A DNA stretch of 64,000 nucleotides from Glaucostegus cemiculus (GCA_976551045.1 CDPCPM010000059.1:6386001-6450000); one strand, 5' to 3'. Positions 9,781 through 60,512 are shown, numbered from the stretch's first letter. A program made the numbers and translations. Notes: generated from the sequence alone by a model not told the origin.

Positions 9781-9807
9781 TTAAAAAAAACTTTATTAAC
9801 CCGAAAT

Positions 9808-10449
9808 GGAAAAACACGATGATGCTGGAGGAACTCAGCAGGCCAGGCAGCATCTGTGGAGAAAAGCAGATCATCAACGTTTCGGGTCAGGACTGAAGAT
9901 AGGAAAAGGGGAAGCCCAATGTATGGGAGGGAAAAGCAGAGCAGTGATAGGTGGACAACAGAGGGGAGGGAGGGTGGGCACATGATGATGATAGGTAGAT
10001 GCAGGTAAGAGCTAGTGATAGGCAGGTGTGGGAGAGGAGGGGAGGGCAGATCCACTGGGGGATGGGACAAAGGTAAGGAGAGAAAGGAGAAAAAAAAAGT
10101 AGAAAAAAATAGGTTAGGAAAGGGAAGAAGAGAAGAAGCATAGTGGTGGGGGGTGGGAATCACCTAAGGTGGGAGAATTCAATATTCATGCTGTTAGGCT
10201 GCAAGGTTCCAAGATGGAAAATGAGGTGCTGTTCCTCCAGTTTGCGCCTGGAATTCTCCTGGCAGTGGAGGAGACCGAGGTCTGTCTCATCAGTGATAGT
10301 GTGGGAGGGGGAGTTGGAGAGACTGGCAACAGGGAAATGTAGGTCACAATTACAGACAGAGCGCAGGTGTTCAGCGAAACGATCAACTCCCTTTTCCTCC
10401 ACAGATGCTGCTCGACCCGCTGAGTTCCTCTAGCAGTTTATTTTTTGCT
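9808..10449 (-). mobile_element. Penelope-like element (GIY-YIG C-terminus plus pseudo-LTR) with inverted terminal copies
   Basis: ORF 10160..10402 DRFAEHLRSV...RRKLEEQHLIFHLGTLQPNSMNIEFS is a PLE endonuclease C-terminus. 9822-9867 and 10391-10435 are inverted copies. Confidence 0.8.
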
Positions 10450-10949
10450 ATAAACCGGCCTGGGCTCACAGTATAGTACAATCTGAAGGAACATTACCAT
10501 AGTACATGTAATGTAGGTTTGAACAACTATGTTTTAGATTGGCTGTCATCCCTAAGGATTGAGTCATTAGTCTCTGGGTTGTATCAGTGTATATCAAAAG
10601 CTCCAGAGGCAGTCTGTGAGGACCCCTTGAATAAATTAAACGTATGATGGTTGAGTTCCTCATGTCTCATGGTGTAATGGGACAATGACACTGACTGTAC
10701 ATATTGCATCTACTAATACCATTTTTCAATTTTTCTTGCTGCAATGCATTGACCTCACTTTCAACACATTTACTATTGTATTGGAGCTGATCTACAGAGT
10801 TAATGGTTCTACCTCAATCATTTTCAGTCCAGAACTAATGCTTATCTCAGCATTGCAGCTGCGGAGTGCATGTGGCTCTTCCACTCATGCACATTCCAAG
10901 GACCAGCTCCAGGTCATTGTTGATTCATTCATTATTCTCTACTAATTGG

Positions 10950-12469: not shown

Positions 12470-13120
12470 AACATAAGAACATAAGAATTAGGAGCAGGAG
12501 TAGGTCTTCTTTGCCTTCAGGGCTCTTTCATCATTTATAAAGACCTTAGTGGATCTTGTACATCAGCACCATTTTCCTGCACTTTCCCTACTTTTCTTGA
12601 ATCCTTTAATATCCAGGTCGATCAGTCTCTGTTTTCAGATAACTTAATGACTGAGCTTCCACTGCACTTCAGGCTAGTGAATTCCTAAGATTTTGTAATA
12701 AGTTTCTCCTCATTTTAGTCCTAAATGGCCAACTACTTATGCAGAAGAGAGATACAGGGGAGTGCAGATGCTGGAATCTGGAGTAACAAACAATCTGCTG
12801 GAAGAACTCAGCGTGTCAAGCAGCATCTATAGGAGAAAAAGAATTATCAATGTTTCGAGTCGGATCCCTGATTTTGCTTAACTCACTGAGTTGTTCCAGC
12901 AGATTGATTGTAGCTTTACTTATTCAGAAACTGTGCCCCCTGGTAATAGACTCCTCAGCTTCCCTGTATCTATTCTGTTGAGTCCTGTAAGAGTTTTACT
13001 AGTTTCAGTATGATAACCTCTTATTCATTTAAACTCTAGAGAATAGCCTAGTCTTCTCAACCTCTCCTCATTCGGAAACCTGCAATTTCAGGAGCAAGTC
13101 TGGTGAATATTCTTTGTACA
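12470..13120 (-). mobile_element. Decayed CR1 3' end, interrupted at 12747-12916
   Basis: Begins aacataagaacataagaattaggagcaggagtagg, the reverse complement of the CR1 tail. Confidence 0.7.
12747..12916. mobile_element. Miniature Penelope-derived fold-back insertion
   Basis: aatctgctggaagaactcag ... ctgagttgttccagcagatt are inverted. Flanked by tacttatgcagaa / tacttattcagaa, a 13-bp TSD with 1 mismatch. Confidence 0.7.
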
Positions 13121-14448: not shown

Positions 14449-15155
14449 TCAGAATCAGAATCAGNNNNNNNNNNNNNNNNNNNNNNNNNNNNNNNNNNNN
14501 NNNNNNNNNNNNNNNNNNNNNNNNNNNNNNNNNNNNNNNNNNNNNNNNNNNNNNNNNNNNNNNNNNNNNNNNNNNNNNNNNNNNNNNNNNNNNNNNNNAC
14601 CGTCCTCCACAGGTGCACATCACATTAAATATTAAACAGAAGAGACACACAGACACACACTGAAAAAGAACATTAAAACCACAAAAATTAAGTTAAGTTC
14701 TGCAGCTTAAATAAATAGTTTTAAAATGAGCTAAATAGTTTCAAAATGAGCGAACTGGCGGCGGACATTTAAAGTGCTGGTGTGTTACTGAGCGTCTAGC
14801 ATCCTTTAGTGTTGGCAGGATAGATGGAGGAATGAGAGAGTTCACTGATCTGATGGCTTGTGGGAAGAAGCTATTACACAGCCTGGTCGTTCTCGCCTTG
14901 ATGCATTTGAGCCTTCTTCCCGACAGCAAGAGTGTGAAGAGATGATGGGAGGGGTGAGAAGGATCCGACATTATATTTTTGGCCTTCCTAACACATCGGT
15001 CCTTGTATATGTCAGCGATGGAGGGAAGATAGACACCAATGATCTTGTCCGCTGCCCTCACTATCCTCTGGAGGGACTTCCATCCAGCAGCTGAGCAGCT
15101 CCCGAACCAGACAGTGATACATTGAGTTAGGATGCTCTCGATAGTCTCTCTATAA
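14449..15155 (-). mobile_element. Rex1/Babar LINE 3' fragment (RT C-terminal DUF1891-like region)
   Basis: ORF 14741..15202: YRETIESILTQCITVWFG...DPSHPSHHLFTLLLSGRR...RTTRLCNSFFPQAIR, with a (CTGATT)n tail. Confidence 0.85.
14465..14598. other. Assembly gap (run of N)
   Basis: 134 consecutive N. Confidence 0.99.
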
Positions 15156-16689: not shown

Positions 16690-19395
16690 ATGAGTGTAAG
16701 GGTAGTTCATCTGAATGTCTGTAGTATTTGAAACTAGGTCAGTGACCTTGTGGCATAAATCAGTACAAAAGGGTATGATTTAGTGGCCATGACAGAATCG
16801 TGGTTGCAGGGTGGAGATAATTGGGAATTAAATATCCAAGGGTATCGGGTCCTATGGAAGGATAGGCAGGAAAGATAAGTGAGGTGGGGTGGAGCTCTTA
16901 GTTAAGAATGAGATCAAGGTGATAGTGAGAGACAATATAAGATCTAAGGAGCAGAATGTTGAGTCCATTTGGGTAGAGATTAGGACTAGTAAAGGGAAAA
17001 AGGTCACTGGTGGGAGTTTTCTATAGGCCATCGAATACTAGCATTTGTGGCACAGACAATAGACCAAGAAATGTTTGATGCATGTAAGAATGGAATGGCA
17101 GTTGTCATGGGGGACTTTAACTTGCACATAGATTGGGTGAATCAAGTTGGTTAAGGCAATTTTGAGGAGGACTTCATAGAATTCATCCATCATAACTTTG
17201 TTAGTGAACCTACCAGGGAAAATGCTATCTGAGATCTGGTCCTGTGTAATGAGACAGGTAAAATGAATGGTCTTTGTAGTTGGGGATCCTCTTGAAAAGA
17301 TTGATCATAGTATGATTGAATTTCTCATACAAATGAAGGGTGTAATAGTTCCATCTAAAACCCAGTGTTATGCTTAAACAAGGGAGACTACAATGGGATG
17401 AAAGAGAAGTTGGCTAGTGTAGACTGAGAACACAGGCTATATGTTGGGACAGTTGACAAACAGTGGAAGACTTTCAAAGATTTTTTCAGTGCTTGACAGT
17501 ATATTCCAGTCAAAAGCAAGGACAGTAAGGGTAGAGAGAGCCAGCCTTGGATAACTAAGGAAATAAAGGAAGGTATCAGGATAAAAGCTCATGCATACAA
17601 TGTTGCTAAGAGTAGTAGGAAACTGGAAGGTTGGGAAAACTTTAAAAAGCAAGCAAGAACCACTAAGCAAACAATAAGGAAATGGAAGATAGATTAGGAA
17701 GGTAAATTAGAACAAAATATAAAAACAGTAGAAGTTTTAATAATTATATAAAGCATAAAAGGGTGACTAAAGTTAACGTAGGTCCCTTGGAAGATGAGAA
17801 GGGGGAATTAATATTGGGTAATGTGGAAGCCTTGAACAACTATTTTGTGTCAGTCTTCATGGTGGAGGACACATCTAACATGCCAAAGAGAGATGTTATG
17901 GATGCGATGGGAGGTGAGGACTTCAATACAATCTCTGTCACTAAAGAGGTGATGATGAGCAAACTAGTGGGTCTAACAGTAGACAAGTCCCCTGGTCCTG
18001 ATGGGATGCTGGGGTACTAAAAGAAATGGCAGCGGTTATAGTAGAGGCTTTGTGATAATTTACTAAAATTCTCTGGTCCTGGCAGATTGGAAGACAGCAA
18101 ATGTCATGCCACCATTTTTTTTTAAAAAAAGGATTATGTAGGCAAAAGGCAGGTAACTATAGGCCAGTTAGCTTAATGTATGTTGTTGAGAAAATGCTTG
18201 AAGCTGTCATTAAGGAAGAAATAGCGAGACATCTGGATAGAAATGGTTCCATCGGGCAGATGCAGCATGGAAGGGCAGGTCCTGTTTGACAAACTTACTG
18301 GAGTTATTTAAGGATATAATGAGCGCATTAGATAGCAGGGAACAGGTGGATGTTGTGTACTTGGATTTCCATTGATAAGGTGCTGTCCATAAGATAGGGA
18401 TGCACGGAGTTGGGGGTAATGTATTAGCATAGATAGAGGACTGGTTAACCAACAGAAGGCAAGAGTTGGGATAAATGGGTGTTTCTCTGGTTGACAGTCA
18501 GTGGTGAGTAGGGTGCCACGGGGGTCGGTGCTGGGCCCGCAATTGTTCATGATATACATTAACGATTTGAAAGAGGGGACTGAGTGTAGTGTATTTAAGT
18601 TTGTGGATGACACTAAATTGAGTGGAAAAGCAAATTGTACAGAGGATGCAGAGAGATATAGATAAGTTAAGTGAGTGGGCAAGGGTCTGGGAGATGGAGT
18701 ACACTTGGTAAATGCAAGGTCATCCAGTTTGGAAGGAAAAATAAAAGATCAGATAATTAAATGGTGAAAAATTGCAGCATGCCATTGTGCAGAGGGACTA
18801 GGGAGTGCTTGTACATGAATTGCAAAAGGTTGGTTTGCAGGTGCAACAGGTTATCAAGAAGGCAAATGGAATGTTGGCCTTCATTGTTATAGGGATTGAA
18901 TTTAAGAGCAGGGAGGTTCTGCTGCAACTATAGAAGGTACTGGTGAGGCTGCACCTGGAGTACTGCATGCAGTTCTGGTCTCCTTACTTAAGGAAAGATA
19001 GACTGGCTTTGGAGGTGGTGCAGAGGTTGTTCACCAGCTTCATTCTGGAGATGAGGAGTTTAGGCTATGAAGAGTTTGAGTTGCCTGGGACTATACTTGT
19101 TGGAATTCAGAAGAATGAGAGGGGATCTTAGAAACATAACATTATGGAAGGGATAGGGGGAAAAAAAGATAGAGGCAGGTAGATTGTTTCCATTGGTAGA
19201 TGAGATCAGAACTAGGGGACATAGCCTCAAGATTTGGGGGTGTAGATTTAGGGCAGAGATGAGGAGAAACTGCTTTTCTCAGAGTAGTGAATCTGTGGAA
19301 TTCTCTATCTAGGGAAGCAGTAGAGGCTACCTCATTAAATATATTTAAGAGACAGTTAGACTTTTGCATGGTAGGGGAATTGAGGGTTATGAGGA
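16690..19395 (+). pseudogene. CR1 ORF2 (APE endonuclease plus reverse transcriptase), many stops and frameshifts
   Basis: DLVAMTESW; VVMGDFN; DKSPGPDG; AGNYRPVSL; KFVDDTKL; RLHLEYCMQFWSPYLRKD; LWNSL. Confidence 0.9.
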
Positions 19396-19859
19396 AAAGG
19401 CAGGTAGGTGGATCTGAGTCCACAGCCAGATCAGTCACTGAATGGCAGAGCAGGCTCGATGGGCCAGATGGCCTACTCCTGCTCCTATTTCTTATACTCT
19501 TATGTTCTTGTGATTCTGAGCCCAAGTTGCCCTTCGTCAGCTGTTGTAAAATGCAAAGACAATGGACTTCTATTGTTTTTCTAGCTGTGTTTGGTTTCTG
19601 TATTTATTCCACATGTTCTGAAGAGATTTTATATTTGCACTGATGGTAGGACAGGTTTGTCATTGTACCCAAAGTATAATCTTAATATAGCTTGCCGTTC
19701 TCAATGGCATGAGATGAGCCTTAAATACCGTCCTTGCCATCATTGCCCACTTCCCTTGATCAAATAATGAAAAACAAAACAAACCTTCCTGTAACTTGTC
19801 TTTAACTTTACTTTCTTAAGATTTAGTGTCAAAAAGGATTGCTACCATCTGAGTCATGC

Positions 19860-23452: not shown

Positions 23453-23525
23453 TAGTCTGATTTTGATGCTTTACTGCACATTCACGGTACCTTTGAATGT
23501 GCAGTAAAGCATCAAAATTAGACTA
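23453..23525. repeat. Near-perfect inverted repeat (hairpin)
   Basis: tagtctgattttgatgctttactgcacattca-cggtacctt-tgaatgtgcagtaaagcatcaaaattagacta: 32-bp arms with one G.T mismatch. Confidence 0.92.
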
Positions 23526-27424: not shown

Positions 27425-27720
27425 AAAGCTGTGAATGCTGGAAATATGAAAAGCAAAGGTGGAATTACTGATTATCTAAAATTGTTGGGTTGAGAGTTGA
27501 GTCTGGAAGGTTGTAATGTGCTTAGTTAGAAGTTGGGATATTTTTCTGCTTTATTACAGCAATGAAGGAGGCTGTATACTGAGAGGTCAGAATACAAACA
27601 GGAAGAAGAACTACTGTGACAATCAGATAGAAGCTTGGGTCACCCTTGTGACTAAATGAAAGTGTTCTGAAAATTGATTAAATAATCTGTATTTATTTTC
27701 TCCAGTGTAACAGAGAGCAC
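27425..27720 (-). mobile_element. Decayed Penelope-like GIY-YIG C-terminus
   Basis: The reverse complement of gagagttgagtctggaaggttgtaatgtgc reads TLQPSRLN, as in the other PLE copies. Confidence 0.5.
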
Positions 27721-29299
27721 ATTGGTACACAATTGATTTGTTTCATATCTTATGTCCTTCATGGAAGGGAATCTTTCACCTGTACCTGGTCTGACCTTTT
27801 GGTAATTCCAGACCCATCAAAATGGCCCAACAAGCCACAGAGTTCAGGGAAAATAGGGATGAACAATCAAGGTTGGCCTTGACAGTGACATCTACAACAC
27901 TTGGATGAATAAATAATTAAAGCATGAGGTTACAATAACTTGGAAAGAATTACTTTTGAAATATCCTTTCTGTGCATTCCTGTGGGAGATTAGCTCTGTT
28001 AATGACTTTGCATTGATTGGTTATACTCAATAGTCATTAATCACTCCAAATTTCAACATTACTAAAGAATAGCCATTCATTTCATGCTCTTATTCCCTTT
28101 GGAATCTACTTACTATTAATTTAAAGATTTTTGACTAAAGTCAATGTCCTTTGTTCTGGTCAAATGGTTAAATAAACTGGCATTACCAATATATGTTATA
28201 AAATAGCAATGAGATTCCTTATCATTACTATAGTGCATACAATGGGAAAAGTGGAACAGAGTCCATTAATCATTGTCATCGGCTAGATCCGTTTCTATCC
28301 ATCAAAGCATTTTGTGTTCTATTACTACAACAGTTTAACAGCTGGCTAATTAGTTTTGATGTTTATTAACAGTCCCACGTGTGGCAATTTCATGAGATGA
28401 CTGCTGGAAATCTATGTGCATTTCAATCTTTGACATGCTTTCTTAAATAATTCCAATAAATGTATGAGGCATGAACTATTCTTTCAAAATCCATAGCGGT
28501 TATTTGTTACCATGAACCTTGATAGCTTGTTAGTAATGCCGTTGAGTGAGCATTTTGATAAAATCACAGAAATCCCCAGCACTGAAGGAAGCATTTGGTC
28601 CATCATATCCAAAGCAACGTGAAAGAAACTAGTATCCCTTCTCAGCTTTTTATATCATAAGTTATGGCACATCAAGGGCCATCCAGGTATATTTAAGTAG
28701 ATGGAGGGTTTCAGCTTTCACCAGCTTTTCATACAGTGAGTATTTTTTCTTCAGCGCCCCTCTCATCCTTTAACTACTTACCTTAAATCTATGCCACCTA
28801 CTTTCCCATTAGTGCTAGCGAACTGCCTAGCCCTTGGTATGGATTTTCCTTGCAGTAATTGCCACAGAACAGTTCTAGCCTCTCAAAACTGAGCATTCAT
28901 GAGGTGCTGTAACCCCATGGGTTGATGCATGCCTCACTTTGCTATTACTATCAAGCCAACAGGTTAACCCTGATTCAATGAAGGGTGCAGAAGGGCTTAC
29001 TGGGAATGACTCTATACATACCTAAAAAAAATATATGGTTACAGCTCAATGCAGCTAAGTATGGGACTAATTGCGTTTTAAAACAGCATGCAATTGGTAC
29101 AACCAATGGATCAGATTAAAGTTCTGTCATCTTATTATATCTAGTCATGGATATAATAATAGGATGGGGCTCCAAAAAATCCACTTATTGCAAGATGGTG
29201 GACTAGCAGGTCAGTGCTAAAGAAAAGGCTGAAGCATCTTTGTCTAGAAGTGCTGAAGAGATTACTCATTTTGGCTTTCTTTTGAGATCCTCCCCATCA

Positions 29300-35639: not shown

Positions 35640-37085
35640 GCAGCAATCTGAAGTCCACATAGGATGACAGACTTGAACCCTCCACCTTTCTGGCCACAAG
35701 AAGTTTCAGGTTCCACTGGTCCTCCCCCTCCATCCCATCTGATTCTGCATGCAATGAATAAACCTTTGTAATTTTCACTGCATTCGACAAGATTCAATCA
35801 CAAGACACATTTTCCTTCTCTTTCAGTGTTCCAAAGGATCCATCCCCTTAAATGTGAAAACAGTCCTGAGTTTCAGTATGTGGATGGTTTGATCAAATTA
35901 CAGAAAATCTGATTTGGGTAGAGTTTAACATTGTCTTAATTGAACTTATGTTCAAGAGCTTAAAAGACTTTTGGAAGGTTTTGGGATTTGATGTAATGAA
36001 CTCCCTGGTCTGCTCTTCCAGCCCCACCAATTACTTCCCCTCTTATAGCTCTTTCCAGTGCAATTTTAGGCTCAGTAGTGCCTGCTCTTTTACCTTTCTT
36101 TCCACCAAATAATCCGTCCAAATGAAGCAGAAATTCACTCACAATTCTTCCAGTCTAGTCTGAAAGTAACTGCAGATGCTGGAAATCTGAAAGGTAAACA
36201 GAAAATGCTACAAACACTCAGCAGATCTAAAATAAGTCCATGAAAAGTCTCAGTAATAGAAAATGTTCTTTGGGCTGTAATGTTAACTGTGCCCCACTTT
36301 CCATGAATACCTATTGACCTGTTGAATGTTGCCAACATTTTCTGGTTTTATACCAGTCTAGTGGATAGCACTCGGTGCTGATGATGTATTCTCCTCTAAA
36401 TTGGAAACCAAATGCAGATTGGGTGACAGCTTCGCAGAACATCACTGTTCAGTCTGTAAGTGTAACCCTTTGCTTCCAGTTTCTTGTCACTTTTATTCGC
36501 CACACCACTCCCACTCTGACTTGACTATCTGTGGATTCCTGCACTGTTCAAACAAAGCCAGGATAAGCTTGAGGAACAGCATTCTGCATTCCATCTGGGC
36601 AGGTTTCAGCGTTGAGGAATCAATATTGAATTCAAAAATTTCAGGAACATATTTTTCCGGTTTGTACAGAACTGGCCAGTTTTGCTGTAAGGTTATCCAT
36701 TTGCTAAATTAACTTTTTTTTCCCTCACACGCAGTGTCCAACCTGCTGGGCATTTCCGACATTTGCCTTTTCATTACATGTTTCAGCAACAGCTTCAACA
36801 TACATTTCACAAATTTAATGTTTCCCTTTGCTTGTTTTCCCTCTCTTTCTCTCACTCTTACTTTATTAATCTGTTCACCCAATGGTCTGTAAACACCCTG
36901 GCCTCACCCTATCAGGGATGTTCTCTTTGTCCTATCCAACATCAACTCTCCCCGCCCCCCCCACCGCCCCAATCCATCCACCATCTCTGTAACATCAAAC
37001 TAAGTTCTGATGAAGGGTCTTCAGCCTGAAATGTTAAACCTGTTTCCCTCTTCACTTAGTTTTTCCAGAATTTTCTATTTCCATT
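35640..37085 (+). mobile_element. Decayed Penelope-like element (GIY-YIG domain plus pseudo-LTR)
   Basis: QMKQKFTH.SSSLV...ETKCRLGDSFAEH...PVSCHFYSPHHS. CTGATGA...GAAA motif at 37007-37031. A mini-insertion at 36160-36352 is flanked by ccagtctagt. Confidence 0.7.
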
Positions 37086-45380: not shown

Positions 45381-46350
45381 ATAGGCCAAATGATTGATGG
45401 ATCTCTAGCTTTGAACTTCATCCATCTAATGTGTTTATTTTAATACATTTAATTTGCAGTGCTGTGCGTTAAGACAACAGGAATGGTACAGCTGATTGGG
45501 CATTGAACAATTAGCTCTTATAAAGGGATCACAGAGTGAATGTCTTCCTATTTTGCTGCATCATTCTATTGTATGACAAAAATCAAAAACTGTAAATGCT
45601 TCCAGTGTACATGTGGGTCTCTCAACAAAAATGGGTTAGTGTCTATGGGATAGGACTTTAAAATGAGATGTAGTTAACACTTAAGGTGGGAATTATATAG
45701 AAGTATAATATATAAATGGGACCACCCTGTTTTCAGAGGTTGTTACCAATTCATTCCAGCAGCTTCTCATGACTGGCCTCTCCTTAGAATGGTTTGGTTC
45801 CACAGGTTTCAATAGTTAATTCCACCAAGAGACAATTCTTTGTTGTGATCTGTTCAGTGAGCATTAGCAGAAGATGGGCCAACCTTTCAAATGAGCTACA
45901 AATCCATGAGCTTGGGTAAATTATAAACAGAGGAGTGTGTTCCCAAAATAGGGCACTGGTCTGCTGTGAACAGATAGTCATCAGGTAGTCCCAAAATTAC
46001 AAAGAGAAAAGTCAACATTGAAGGCAGGGCAATTATCGTCCAGGTATTGGTACTTCAATGCATTTTGCAACATTTGAAGTCCCTGGTACCTCCATCTTTC
46101 TAGTAATGATTCAGATTTACCCTGGTTTGCTTTATTTTAATGATTGAAGTATTTATGATTTATCTGAACCCATGAACGCTACTATCTCGTTATTCCTTTT
46201 TTTGGCACTATTTATTTATTTTTGAAATTTATAATAACTTTATATCTTTGCACTGTACTGCTGTCACAAAACAACAAATTTCACATTGTATAAGTCAGTG
46301 AAAATAAATCTGATTTTATTCGAAATAAATACAATTTGCTGGCTTCCATT

Positions 46351-47256
46351 TCAGAATCAGAATCAATTTATTGTCACTTTCACGTATACATGAAGGCGAG
46401 ATATCGTTTCTCCACAGGCCAATGTGCAAAAGACATTAAAGACAATAAAGGACAACGGGACAAAAACATCAAAACATTAACAGCCCCCCAGCCTCACCCC
46501 GCACCGACGACCACCTCCAACCCCCGCAGTCCTACAACCTCAGGGCCCACAGTCCATCAACAACCTCCGGCCTGCAGTCCGACAGTCCGACCACCTCCGG
46601 CCCCGCAGTCCGACCACCTCCGGCCCCGCAGTCCGACCACCTCCAGCCCCGCAGTCCGACGACCTCCAGCTCCTTTGCCTCTGGCCTTGCAGTCCGACCA
46701 CCTTCGGCCCCGCAGTCCGACGACCTCCGGCTCCTTCGCCTCCGGCCCCGCAGTCCGACGACCTCCGGCTCCTTCGCCTCCGGCCCCGCAGTCCGACGAC
46801 CTCTGGCTCCTTCGCCTCTGGCTCCGCAGGCTGACGACCTCCGGCCCCGCAGGCCGACAACCTCCGGCTCCTTCGCCTCTGGCTCCGCAGGCCGATGACC
46901 TCTGGCCCCGCAGGCTGACAACCTCTGGCTCCTTCGCCTCCGGCTCCGCAGTCCGACGACCTCCAGCCCCGCAGGCCGACCACCTCCGGCCCGAGCAGCC
47001 CCCTCACTGCCCGCATCCCGATGCCACCACGAGGCTGCAGGGCCTTCGACACGCTGTTGCCTCCGATGAGCTCCGACGAGCCGTCGGAGCCGTCAGTACA
47101 GACAACGACTCCATAAAACGAACACCAAGCACACAAACATCAGGAGCAAAGAACACACAAAAAAAAAAGCACAAAAAAACACTAAAAGACTAACAAAAAA
47201 GCACAAGCACTACAGACCTGGGAGAGGCCGCTGCAACTATGTGCGCCGCCATCTTG
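46351..47256 (-). mobile_element. Non-autonomous element with GC-rich VNTR and Rex1/Babar 3' tail
   Basis: The minus strand starts CAAGATGGCGGCG and ends cctgtggagaaacgatatctcgc...gtgacaataaattgattctgattctga. Confidence 0.75.
46495..46992 (+). repeat. GC/CpG-rich VNTR (23-bp gcagtccgacgacctccggcccc plus 15-bp ggctccttcgcctcc subunits)
   Basis: Directly visible tandem units. Confidence 0.95.
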
Positions 47257-47750: not shown

Positions 47751-48122
47751 ACCAGGCCAGCTGGGTAAGTGAGTTGCTCTGATTCCAAGTTTGTCTGAGA
47801 TAACTTTACTTTCAAACCTTTGTTTTGTTTTAATCATGCTCCTTCAATCATACTGCACTGAATTATTGATTCCAGGCACAACACAATTATCATGTGTGCT
47901 CTAGCGATCATTTTTTCATCATTGAAATTAACATTTTTAATCATGCTTTGGTAAATTATTGATCAGTCTTCGTATTGCAAATATCAGTTCAATCACACCG
48001 GAATGAATAGTTGTATCTCATGAAGATATCTCTGTCATTGAAGCCCAGATAAATTATTCCACCTAACTCATTCTTTCTCTACCCAACAATAATGGCACAG
48101 AATAGGTGGGGATTAATTAATC

Positions 48123-48290
48123 GAGACACAAGAGACTGAACTGCTGTAATCTGGGACAAAGAACAAACTGCTGGAGGAATTTAGTGGACGAGGCAGCATC
48201 TGTGAAGACAAAGGGATTATCGATATTTTGGGTTGAGAAGTCCTGATGCAGGGACCTACTCAGTTCTTCCAGCAGTTTGATTTTTGCTTG
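48123..48290. mobile_element. Miniature Penelope-derived fold-back insertion
   Basis: aaactgctggaggaattta ... cagttcttccagcagttt are inverted, and attaatc lies on both flanks. Confidence 0.6.
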
Positions 48291-48414
48291 GAATTGATTA
48301 ATCAACTATCCAATAAAGTCATTATGGGAAAAGTACATCTTCCTTTCACACGTACATGGCAGAGTCCTTGTCCTGCTTTCCTGTTGGATTTTGCTCAATG
48401 AGTCAAGTGAAGGG

Positions 48415-52090: not shown

Positions 52091-53609
52091 GATATGAACA
52101 TATGAATTATGAGCAGGAGTATGATACTCAGATCTTGAGCTGATTTTGCCATTTAAATAGACCATGACTGATGTAATTGTTACCTTAGCTCCACATTCCC
52201 ATCTGCCCATGGTAACCTTTCACTACCTTATCAGGAATCTCAATATCTCTGCGTTAGAAATCATGCACTACACCCAGGTCCCTGTGCATCTCAGAATTCT
52301 GCAATCTCTCACCATTTGCATAACATGTTTCCTTTATGATTTTCATGCCAAAATGGATGATTTCATATTTTCTTACGTTATCCTCAATTTGTCAAACCTT
52401 TGCACTTAACTTGTCTATATTCCTTTGTAAGAACACACAAGATGCAAGAGGAACTCGGCGGGTCAGGCAGCATCCATGGAGGGCATGGAGGTCCACATTT
52501 TGGTCTGAGACCCTTCATCAGGACTGGAAAGAAAGAGGGCAGAAGCCAGAAGGAAAGGGTGGGGGAAGGAGGAGGAGCACGAGTTGGTGGGTAATAGGTG
52601 AGTCCGGATGAGGGAGGGGAAAGGTAGGTGGGGAAGTGGGGAAGGAGTAGAAATGATGTGAGAAGCTGGGAGGTGGAAAAGGCAGAGGGCCGAAGAAGAA
52701 GGAATCTATAGGAGAGGACAGTGGACCATGGAATCAAGGGAAGGAGGGTGGGGAACCAGAGGGAGCAAGGTGTGGGTGATGGGCAGGTCGGGTGGGTGGA
52801 GGAGGGGAAAGAGAAGGGAAAATAAGGCCGGAGGGGTAAAGGAAAACAAAGGGGGAGGGGGGACAGAGGGGAGCGGTTACTGGAAGTTAGAGAAATTGAT
52901 GTTGATGTCATCGGGTTGGAGACTACCCAGGCAGAATATGAGGTGTTGTTCCTCTAATCTGCATCTAGCCTCAATTTAGCAGTAGAGGCAGCCATGGACA
53001 GACATCTCAGTGTGGGAATGGGAAGTGGAATTAAAATGGCTGGCCACCAGGAGATTTTGACTGATATGGTGGATTCTTCCCTTTATTCCATGCTTCCTCC
53101 CCCTGGTTCTCAACTCCTTCCCTTTATTCCATGCTCCACTGTCCTCTCCTATCAGATTCCATCTTCTTCAGTCCTTTGCCTCTTCCACCTATCACCTCCC
53201 AGCTTCTCACATCATTCCCACTCCCCCCTCCCCCCACCCCACCTACATATCTTCCCCCTCACACGGACTCAACCACATTTTGGATGCTCTTCCGAGTGGC
53301 AGATACTGTGGAACAAAGTGACGGAATTCACTTTGCTGCTAACCTGTAGAAGAAAACAGGTATTTGCATGGACAGTCAACATACAAGGAGTTTTCAGGGT
53401 GAGAAAGTCACTACTGAGTAAGCCCTGAGTTGCACGCAAACACCTGTGTCCTTCTACAGGTTACCGACAAAGTGAACTCCACTGGACTACTCCAGAAATC
53501 CATCCACGGATTTTAGTGACAAACACAGTTACTGTCCTTCATCCAACGACAGAAACAAAACAGGCTGCCGTCTCTCCTTCTTCTCTCTTTCCTTCTGTTT
53601 GTCCTTCTG

Positions 53610-53848
53610 GTGAACCTGTGGAACTCCTTACCACAGAAAGCAGTGGAAGCCAGATCATTGGGGATATTCAAGAAGGAAATAGATAGATATCTAATTGGTC
53701 AAGGTATCAAGGGATATGGAGATAAGGCAGGGATTTGGACTTAGAATAGTAGGTTTTTTTTTCCCACGCTCCCTTCCCTTTGGAGCAGACTCGATGGGCC
53801 GACTGGCCTGCTTCTGCTCCATTATCTTGTGATCTTGTGTGATCTTGT
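53610..53848 (+). mobile_element. CR1 3' end nested in the PLE
   Basis: gtgaacctgtggaactcctta (VNLWNSL)...gactcgatgggccgactggcctgcttctgctcc and (GATCTTGT)n. Confidence 0.85.
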
Positions 53849-53926
53849 GACTCACCTATTATTCGCCAGCTCGTGCTCCTCCCCCTCCTCCCACCCTTTT
53901 AGTCTGGCTTCTGCCCTCTTTCTTTC

Positions 53927-53964
53927 CAGTCCTGATGAAGGGTCTCAGCCTGAAATGTTGACGG
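53927..53964 (+). ncRNA. Minimal type-I hammerhead ribozyme motif in a PLE pseudo-LTR
   Basis: gtc-CTGATGA-agg(gtctcag)cct-GAAA-tgtt-gac: conserved core, stem II, decayed palindromic stem III and stem I gtc/gac. Confidence 0.7.
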
Positions 53965-55414
53965 TTCACTTCCCTCCATAGATGCTGCCTGACCTGCTGA
54001 GTTCCTCCAGCATTTTGTGTTCCTCCAGATTCCAGCATCATTCTTGTGTCTCTATATTCCTTTGTAACTTTTTATGTCATTTTCGCAACTTAGTTTCCTA
54101 TTTACAATTGTGTCATTGGAAAATTTAGTAACCATACCTTCGATGCCTTCATTCAAATCATCCTAATAAATTAAAAAAGCTGAGGCCCAGCATAACTCCC
54201 TGTGGCACATTGTTTGTTTTATCCCTCCAAGCAGAAAAAGACACTTTTATTCCTACTCCCTGTCTCCTGTTATCCAACCAATCCTCTATTCACCCTGTGC
54301 CTAACCTTTTGTACCATGAGCTTTAATATCCCACAATAACCTTTGATGTGGCACAATATCAAATGCCTTCTGGAAACCAGTTGAAGGGTCTCGACCTGAA
54401 ATATCAACTGTCTATTTCCCTCCATAGATGCTGCCTGACCCACTGAGTTCCTCCAGCACTTTTTGACTTCTTCAATAAATTGGGCAAACGTGATTTTCCT
54501 CTCACAAAACCATGTTGACTTTCCAGGACTACCTTGATCTTTTTCCAAATTCTTTTCTGTATGTTGCCCAGTAGGAGAGACCCCCAATGCATATGCTCAG
54601 CTTGGTATCAAGAGGAGGAAATCAATGCCAAGCTGTGGTCATACCTCTAAGAAACTGATGCACTGCAGAAAGAAGTTTAATGTTTTGGCATGAATTATCA
54701 ATGTAATGGAGTTTAATCTATTAGCTACACCACTAGACCCAACCACCTCTCGATTTACCTTTCATTTAGACATGCTTAATGCAAAGCTCATCCTCCCATT
54801 TGCTCAGTGAATGAGTTGGTAGTGACCAAGAGCTTGGCCTCTGAATGTGTGCATACACAGGCCCCATCTGTGTCTTGCACTAAGTGGTGAAGGTTAGTGG
54901 AGGTAATGTGGGTTGAATAGCTTTCCATTTGGCCTGTATATCAGTGTTGCTCCACTGGGAATTTTTGTCTGGATGCAAGGTGCAATATTGTGGTGAGAAA
55001 GTGAGGAAAGGTTGGAGTGATGACACAGCTTTGTTTGATCCCAGTCTGCACTGGGGTTGGGTAGCTGGCAGACCAATTGGTGAGAATCACAGCTTGCGTG
55101 CCATCACATTCAGATGTAAGGTACCAATGAATCCCTGAGGGCAGATAAATTTGAGAAGGATTCCCTACAGTCCTTCTCAGTTGATAGAACAAGATCAAAA
55201 AAGACCATGCTGCTTCCTGCATTCTTCTTGGGGTTATTATGCAGGGAAGGTTATTTCCATAGTGTCCCTTGATGGCAGGGATCCATACTTTGAGGAACAG
55301 CTCGTTATTCACTTGGAGGAGGAGAAGAGAGGAGAAAAACACTTGTGGTGACTTTCCCTTAGGGAGACAACATGGAGACCCCTCTATGGTAACAAAAATT
55401 GGATTAGTCTCTTT

Positions 55415-59214: not shown

Positions 59215-60512
59215 GGCTGATTAAGGATAGTCAGCATGGCTTTGTGCGAGGTAGATCGTGTTTAACGAATCTTGTTGAGTTTCTTGAGGAGGTCACCAAG
59301 AAAGTAGATGAAGGAAAGGCAGTGGATATAGTCTACATGGACTTTAGTAAGGCCTTTGACAAGGTCCCACATGGGAGATTAGTTCAGAAGGTTCAGTCAA
59401 TGGGTATCCATGGAAAGGTTGTAAACTGGATTCGAAATTGGCTGAGTGGGAGAAGACAGTGAGTGGTTGTGGATGGTTGTTTCTCAGATTGGAGGCCTGT
59501 GACTAGTGGTGTGCCTCAGGGATCTGTGTTGGGACCATTGTTGTATGTTGTATATATCAGTGACCTAGATGATAATGTGGTAAATTGGATTAGTAAATTT
59601 GCGGATGACACGAAGATTGGAGGTGTAGTGGACAGCGAGGAAGACTTTCAAAGCTTGCAGAGGGATTTGAACCAAATGGAAAAATGGTCCAGAGAGTGGC
59701 AGATGGAATTTAATGCAGAAAAGTGCGAGGTGTTGCATTTTGGAAGGACAAATCAAGGGAGGACTTACACAGTGAACGGTAGGACACTGAGGAGTGTGGA
59801 GGAACAAAGGGATCTGGGAGTTCAGGTACATAATTCCCTGAAGGTAGAGTACAGGTAGACAGGGTTGTAAAAAAAAAGGCTTTTGGCATCCTGGCATTTA
59901 TAAATCAAAGTATTGAGTTGGAATGTTTTGGTAAGGTTGTATAAGTCATCGGTGAGACCAAATTTGGAATATTATGTGCAGTTCTGGTCGCCAAACTACA
60001 GGAAGGGTGTCAGTAAGATTGAAAGAGTGCAGAGCAGATTTACTAGAATGTCGCTGGGTCTTCACGAGTTGAGTTACAGGGAAAGATTGAGCAGGTTAGG
60101 ACTTTATTCCTTGGAGCAGAGAAGAATGAGGGGAGATATGGTAGAGGTTTACAAAATGATGAGGGGCATAGACAAGGTTAATGCAAGTAGGCTGTTTCCA
60201 CCTAGGTTAGGAGAGATAACTACGAGAGGACAAGACTTTAGGGTGAAAGGGGAGAGGTTTAGGGGGAACATTAGGGGGAACTTCTTCACTCAAAGAGTGG
60301 TGGGAAAGTGGAACGGGCTGCCATCTGATGTAGTAAATGCAGGCTCACTCTTAACTTTTAAGAGTAAATTGGATAGATACATGGACGAGAGAGGTCTGGA
60401 GGGGTATGGGCTGGGTGCAGGTAAATGGGACTAGCAGAATAATGTTTCAGCACAGACTAGAAAGTCTGAATGGCCTGTTTTCCTGTGCTGTAGTTTTCTA
60501 TGTTTCTGTGGT
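59215..60512 (+). mobile_element. Young 5'-truncated CR1/HER1 LINE (RT domain to 3' end)
   Basis: SQHGFVRGRSCLTNL; DFSKAFDKVPH; GVPQGSVLGPLL; KFADDTK; GLEGYGLGAGKWD. Only a few stops and frameshifts. Confidence 0.95.

Follow-up and report, generated by a model that had tools for sequence, protein, structure and literature searches.

A dead, 5'-truncated head-to-head PLE insertion bounded by a single target-site duplication

The window that we analysed, a stretch of DNA 64 kb in length, contains a dead, 5'-truncated insertion of a Penelope-like element (PLE) with two arms lying head to head within one duplication, and we consider it reasonably likely that a single event laid down the pair, reverse transcription having been primed inward from both nicks of a staggered cut. 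The structure is of a known kind, common locally and ordinary, and the locus alone amounts to one further dead PLE copy with the usual arrangement. It has modest value as a clean example, in which the asymmetry between the arms argues for priming from both nicks over fold-back.

The duplication and the host CR1

The insertion is flanked by an exact direct repeat, the two copies of which are separated by 1620 nt (Table 1). A search of both strands of the window returned no third copy of the 17-mer, and among 2991 pairs of 30-nt windows drawn at random there was none with so high a score (17/17). The perfect 17-bp duplication claimed in an earlier note on this DNA holds. By comparison with related sequences, the original duplication may have measured 15-18 bp rather than firmly 17. 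The 17-mer opens with 2 nt that also stand at the ends of other tail-bearing PLE copies, so the duplication is possibly 15 nt plus microhomology; G52431 matches a CR1 paralogue at the same position, so it is possibly 18 nt, with a right copy that is short of one base.

The target was a decayed CR1 LINE. We made the empty site by script, deleting the insert and one copy of the duplication, and aligned the result to CR1 paralogues within the window. The reconstructed CR1 spans the site collinearly with the paralogues at 18433-18821 (61%) and 59349-59821 (57%), and a paralogue ORF at 59463-59855 corresponds to Pfam RVT_1. The earlier note had the host CR1 reading through once the insert is removed; the two alignments bear this out as regards collinearity but not as regards an open frame, which is closed by stops and by the lack of one base immediately beside the right 17-mer copy. 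The stretch homologous to the 17-mer is single in both of these paralogues, so prior duplication of the 17-mer in the CR1 finds no counterpart in either of the two. The same host CR1 also carries a solo pLTR fragment at 54377-54470, where about 50 nt of CR1 are replaced and no duplication is seen.

Table 1. Coordinates of the features of the insertion, of its host element and of the other head-to-head pairs in the window
Feature	Coordinates	Strand	Details
Host CR1 LINE, RT region, downstream part, decayed	52258-52430	-	By alignment to in-window CR1 paralogues over the empty site
Target-site duplication, left copy	52414-52430	.	17 nt, exact
Left PLE arm, 5'-truncated (ORF end, 3' region, pLTR)	52431-53074	-	644 nt; tail-less 3' end
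Minimal type-I hammerhead relic, left arm	52489-52526	-	G12 = A (52501); position 17 = G (52494); helix I down to 3 bp
C-terminal part of PLE GIY-YIG endonuclease	52880-53059	-	One in-frame stop; by homology to P0001/P0002
Junction filler	53076-53094	+	19 nt; exact copy of 53117-53135; ends at short microhomology with right-arm start
Right PLE arm, 5' part	53093-53271	+	79.6% to 52599-52769 in reverse
6-nt duplication of nested insert	53266-53271, 53849-53854	.	Single in homologous left arm
Nested insert, head	53272-53609	.	338 nt; long hairpin 53323-53480
Nested insert, 3' end of a CR1 followed by a short tandem tail	53610-53848	+	62% to in-window CR1 3' ends 19287-19510 and 1874-2112
Right PLE arm, 3' part (pLTR and tail)	53855-54050	+
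Minimal type-I hammerhead relic, right arm	53927-53964	+	Both boxes (C3-A9, G12-A14) retained; one extra base following A9
PLE tail, right arm only	54021-54050	+	About 30 nt; matched by the tails of the 12.7-, 36.2- and 48.1-kb copies
Target-site duplication, right copy	54051-54067	.	17 nt, identical to left copy
Host CR1 LINE, upstream part	54068-54376	-	1-nt frameshift adjoining the duplication
Head-to-head pair under study	52414-54067		Duplication 17/17; chance P < 0.001
Head-to-head pair	12734-12929		Duplication 12/13; chance P 0.0007
Head-to-head pair	36150-36362		Duplication 10/10; chance P 0.0007; within older PLE ORF continuing across it
Head-to-head pair	48111-48302		Duplication 7/7 or 9/10; chance P 0.01
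Fifth head-to-head pair	9794-10456		Duplication 7/8 only; P 0.48 (not above chance)

Two unequal arms and their junction

Two oppositely oriented PLE 3' arms are present, as the earlier note had described, and they pair in reverse over two stretches, one joining 52435-52604 to 53849-54020 at 84.9% and the other comprising the 5' part of the right arm (Table 1). With the nested insert deleted, the alignment of arm against arm has 286 matching, 46 mismatched and 17 gapped columns. The arms are unequal in length, the right one measuring about 375 nt (insert excluded) against 644 nt for the left, whose 5' boundary was set by eye from homology to the proteins P0001 and P0002. Each also has a part of its own: the left arm alone includes 52770-53074 (about 305 nt, with the end of the ORF), and the right arm extends about 30 nt past 54020, where left-arm homology ends. 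The 3' ends of both arms abut the duplication.

Because the arms share 56 of the 62 nt upstream of the hammerhead, compared with 56-71% for two other copies, they appear to represent the same PLE subfamily. Over the pLTR core the arms match each other at 51/62 positions and the right arm matches the 54377 fragment at 54/64, so that in this part they are no closer mutually. We also observed a 46-nt run of perfect identity to the left arm (53903-53948; P 0.027 against shuffles) over the 5' half of the hammerhead, which may reflect constraint on the source element, conversion or chance.

Three features had been overlooked by the earlier note, namely the nested insert, the remains of the ORF in the left arm, and a 19-nt duplication at the junction between the arms. 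We searched 53040-53140 for a palindrome at this junction, and the longest inverted match was 6 nt. At the point where right-arm homology starts, the end of the 19-nt copy agrees with left-arm sequence in 6 of 7 nt.

The hammerheads

We called a relic of a minimal type-I hammerhead in each arm by manual numbering against the published minimal PLE motif (PMC4209133). The call rests on this numbering, since Rfam detects neither copy; no hammerhead was returned at E<=1 in the window or at E<=10 in 52400-54500, the only matches being sub-threshold ones to miRNA and lncRNA families. Motifs are thus present on both strands, as had been claimed, but both are decayed. The change from GAAA to AAAA reported for the minus strand is correct, and this loss of G12 sets the minus copy apart from the plus copy, which has the minimal type-I core boxes together with the extra base before position 10.1. 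The plus core had been described as intact; its two boxes are kept, but the remainder is not, with a G-U at 10.1-11.1 where a G10.1-C11.1 pair is expected, position 17 occupied by U and a single mismatch within helix I. In neither hammerhead is the 4-mer of helix III self-complementary, so both lack the palindromic 15.2-16.2 that serves dimer formation.

Judged by these changes, both hammerhead copies are probably inactive. The G at position 17 of the minus copy breaks the NUH cleavage rule. Even intact minimal PLE hammerheads fail to cleave as monomers (PMC4209133). In 7 of 8 window copies parsed by pattern, the three changed dinucleotides mostly alternate among CG, TG and CA, and the dinucleotide changes in the hammerheads would in large part represent CpG decay. 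At 11.1-12, one arm has TG and the other the reciprocal CA, so G12 was presumably intact on arrival.

The two relics resemble the minimal type-I hammerheads of metazoan PLEs in their core, in the extra base between A9 and 10.1, in the short helix I and in having no real helix III (PMC4209133). Opposite-strand hammerhead pairs 100-700 bp apart have been reported in the same paper; those found here differ in that both are decayed and the distance between them is about 1.4 kb, or 0.8 kb if the nested insert is discounted. As opposite-strand copies, they also cannot make a tandem dimer within one transcript.

Other PLE loci in the window

We searched the window with the arms and then read the flanks of each match. 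Seven pLTR-bearing loci were found, five of which are head-to-head pairs, four of these with a duplication at the arm ends (Table 1; the P values there were obtained with windows at the arm ends picked by hand). All four duplication-bounded pairs have a tail on one arm and none on the other; in the pairs at 12734-12929, 36150-36362 and 48111-48302, the tail is on the minus arm only. The fifth pair, at 9794-10456, consists of a long minus arm with a GIY-YIG end and a short plus arm; this pair is seemingly tail-less at both ends, and its junction contains a 7-nt motif common to the antisense ORF and the hammerhead core. A SINE-like element adjoins the left end of this pair. The remaining two pLTR loci are the solo fragment in the host CR1 and a 3' end at 37.0 kb. 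More decayed PLE ORF remnants were detected by tblastn at 27475-27724 and 35707-35814.

Proposed priming from both nicks and its alternatives

One duplication touches both 3' ends and the layout is repeated at four loci, which makes it very likely that both arms arrived in a single event. The claim of one event with a staggered cut is well supported, by the one duplication, by the two abutting 3' ends and by three more bounded pairs in the window. As to mechanism, two had been proposed, and they fare differently: priming from both nicks fits the geometry, but simple fold-back does not, since the tail and the ORF end are each confined to a different arm and no inverted match at the junction exceeds 6 nt.

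We propose that the GIY-YIG endonuclease would have nicked both strands of an AT-rich site in the old CR1, 15-18 nt apart, leaving 3' overhangs. The top-strand 3'-OH would then have primed at the proximal (tail-less) RT start site, from which 644 nt would be copied, and the bottom-strand 3'-OH at the distal (tail) start site, with at most 2 nt of microhomology, from which about 375 nt would be copied. Since both cDNAs would be antisense and unable to anneal, their ends would need end-joining; joining of the non-complementary 3' ends via slippage or end-joining would have produced the 19-nt copy, and host repair would have filled the second strands. We infer that this copy, like the 7-nt shared motif at the 9.8-kb junction, reflects end-joining of cDNAs. 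Afterwards, a CR1-tailed element would have entered the right arm, and both hammerheads would have decayed, largely at CpG sites. 

A similar course of events is familiar from L1 twin priming, where cDNA synthesis starts from the two nicks of a single staggered cut and the outcome is an inversion within one duplication and a junction of the microhomology type. In that case, however, the second primer is internal and the inverted piece is not a duplicate, whereas here both primers would lie at the pLTR end and the arms overlap. For PLEs themselves, the anole Poseidon protein PAc (Anolis) nicks and extends both strands in vitro with an AT-rich preference; its reverse transcription begins at two sites that delimit the tail, a dimer is predicted, and hammerhead cleavage is dispensable (PMC11167929). 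Nicking and extension of both strands, an AT-rich target and two start sites would give the anatomy seen here. The choice of start site is without strand bias in vitro (PMC11167929), so a tail on one arm would not be obligatory. PAc belongs to the Penelope/Poseidon clade, whereas the nearest proteins here have a Neptune/Nematis-type Cys linker, and the main text of that paper, which concerns a Poseidon-clade element, does not address inverted arms or duplication lengths. Within the window, the 9.8-10.45 kb pair, which seems tail-less at both ends and has no duplication above chance, also speaks against a tail on one arm as an obligatory feature.

The alternative that survives best, although we think it unlikely, is fold-back or self-priming, in which one cDNA (or an antisense template) folds back and is copied into an inverted repeat, which the endonuclease would trim unequally, so that the tail stays on one end, and integrate at one staggered cut. 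Self-priming is the explanation favoured in print for head-to-head PLEs whose junctions are palindromic (PMC3846280), the tail has been attributed to resolution of an intermediate by the endonuclease (PMC8557442), and the 6/7-nt match between the end of the 19-nt copy and the left arm could be a fold-back priming site. Simple fold-back is nonetheless disfavoured, because under it one arm would have to be wholly contained in the other, and here each arm has a unique part: the left arm in its present state offers no template for the tail, nor the right arm for the ORF end. A palindrome beyond 6 nt is absent from the junction, and in the in vitro system the tail ends coincide with RT start sites (PMC11167929). 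Fold-back also predicts arms that are identical at birth. The arms differ at 40 of 317 non-CpG columns, compared with 0 of 36 for the duplication plus the junction copy (Fisher test, P 0.02), a comparison subject to ascertainment bias in that duplications are detected only if well preserved. With the duplication alone the test gave P 0.24, and pooled over four or five pairs, for which identities in the sister pairs were counted by hand, P 0.055 or 0.098.

Less probable still, and in our view improbable, are two separate insertions, the first arm arriving with the duplication and a second copy later inserting at, or recombining into, its 5' end in inverted orientation. The arms differ at 46/332 columns while the duplication is perfect (P 0.08), PLEs are able to target their own pLTR (PMC11167929), and nesting is frequent in this region, a graveyard of TEs. 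Against this, we found no remnant of a first element between the right tail and the right 17-mer copy, and no second duplication around either single arm; the coincidence would moreover have to repeat at 4 of the 7 pLTR loci in the window.

Least probable, and in our judgement very improbable, is that the locus now acts as a source of hairpin RNA (siRNA, piRNA or a substrate for ADAR) or as a pair of active ribozymes. The inner arms do fold in silico into a long duplex (303/352 columns of the plus strand pairable when G-U is allowed), and PLEs yield small RNAs in rotifers and Drosophila (PMC3846280). Perfect pairing, however, extends over no more than 46, 24 and 18 bp in its three longest stretches, and the right arm is split by 577 nt of insert. 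Substitutions between the arms show no asymmetry (11 T>C against 14 C>T; 3 A>G against 2 G>A), and we rejected an A-to-I signature. Both hammerheads have damaging changes, and minimal PLE hammerheads do not cleave as monomers even when intact (PMC4209133); the Pfam matches among the longest open frames, described below, are all of retrotransposon type. The long dsRNA that the earlier note had raised as a possible product is therefore a weak idea.

Returning to priming from both nicks, we can extend the reading, quite tentatively, to cartilaginous-fish pairs in general, in which a dimeric PLE complex might prime both nicks simultaneously on two different RNAs, using the tail and the tail-less start sites. 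If this were true, the arms would be non-identical at birth and one arm with a tail and one without would be the rule; there would also be many thousands of bounded pairs, enough to settle the origin of inverted pLTRs. Four duplication-bounded pairs per 64 kb suggest that a ray or shark genome could be a large natural dataset on PLE integration.

Relation to known PLE structures

The earlier note had presented the locus as direct evidence on PLE integration. We do not follow it in this, as the locus is one old copy and the layout was already typical for PLEs: inverted pLTRs within one 8-10-bp duplication, with a 31-bp tail on one of them, constitute typical Penelope structure (PMC3846280), the inverted-pLTR layout is a feature given in a curation guide (PMC8969392), and PLE duplications are stated to be variable in length (PMC8557442). 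The closest likeness in form is with Pen2a_Av and Pen2 on scaffold 304 of Adineta vaga, which have head-to-head pLTRs, one duplication (9 and 10 bp) and a 31-bp tail on one pLTR (PMC3846280). Compared with these inserts, the duplication here is longer (15-18 bp), both arms are 5'-truncated and a direct pLTR pair is absent; the ORF end is on the tail-less arm, and a 19-nt direct copy replaces the palindrome. Penelope of Drosophila virilis likewise has, in its most frequent form, inverted terminal repeats of varying size with an optional 34-bp extension at the end, the repeat of 34-37 bp being described in the same source (PMC2377424). The fly form is a partial tandem with intact ORF and promoter, whereas the locus described here is a short dead remnant from another clade.

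In our literature searches and the accessible text of the papers cited here, we found neither a survey of duplication lengths around inverted PLE pairs nor a statement tying the two start sites to inverted arms, and the accessible text of a recent preprint (bioRxiv 10.64898/2026.07.22.740005) adds nothing on inverted pairs.

Identity of the element and its host

The last 60 codons of the left arm are 68% identical to P0001 of Hypanus sabinus (E 1.7e-19) and 72% identical to P0002 of Mobula hypostoma (E 5.4e-19), and five of the seven protein candidates scored for the left-arm GIY-YIG end. The left-arm fragment itself has no Pfam match; P0001 and P0002 match Pfam GIY-YIG slightly below the curated cut-off and also hold RT-side regions. 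The GIY-YIG C-terminus, the inverted pLTRs, the tail at one end and a duplication of variable length are those of an EN+ PLE. The telomerase-like RT domain has gone from the locus through 5' truncation and is found only in the homologous proteins. These proteins also contain a CX4CX2C linker, which falls outside the truncated locus, and a CX2-5CxxC linker between RT and EN marks the Neptune/Nematis clade (PMC8557442). Taking the linker of the two nearest proteins as a proxy, the element would be of Neptune/Nematis type, and by the same nearest proteins the host is probably a cartilaginous fish.

A pattern scan for the shared hammerhead stretch in a collection of genome contigs without vertebrate DNA gave 0 loci. 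A protein scan of the same collection gave one locus among 38 candidates (L001, 49% to P0002), at which no usable inverted pair was found. The PLE-like ORF there, at 43-1111 on a bacterial MAG contig, is probably contamination of the assembly by an animal host.

Nested insert and coding content

The nested insert (53272-53848, 577 nt) splits the right arm and is younger than the PLE pair. Its head folds strongly, with z scores of -5.1 on the plus and -6.8 on the minus strand; none of 100 shuffles was equally stable, and the arms of its hairpin are 48 nt long. No further copy of the head was found in the window. For the frame at 53270-53425, one protein search was without a match and another gave two weak matches to repetitive unnamed proteins (E 6e-7 and 2e-4); two overlapping frames in the head had no Pfam match, and we treated it as non-coding. 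The insert may represent a SINE-like element mobilised by CR1, a chimera from template switching or a fragment that includes a MITE.

There are 207 open frames of >=66 aa in the window, and we searched the 150 longest against Pfam, a scope in which short exons would be missed. Four of the 150 matched, two to RVT_1 and two to ALKBH8_N, the latter of which we take to be LINE-derived; no host exon was detected among these frames, and ARAGORN found no tRNA in the window. A scan for bacterial promoters came out no better than chance and has no bearing on eukaryotic DNA. An assembly gap of 134 N (14465-14598) lies at a distance from the PLE pair. A long hairpin at 23453-23525 has a sub-threshold match to an miRNA family (E 0.0033; 32.9 bits, the cut-off being 80), and a GC-rich tandem repeat array at 46294-47193 contains long open frames on both strands.
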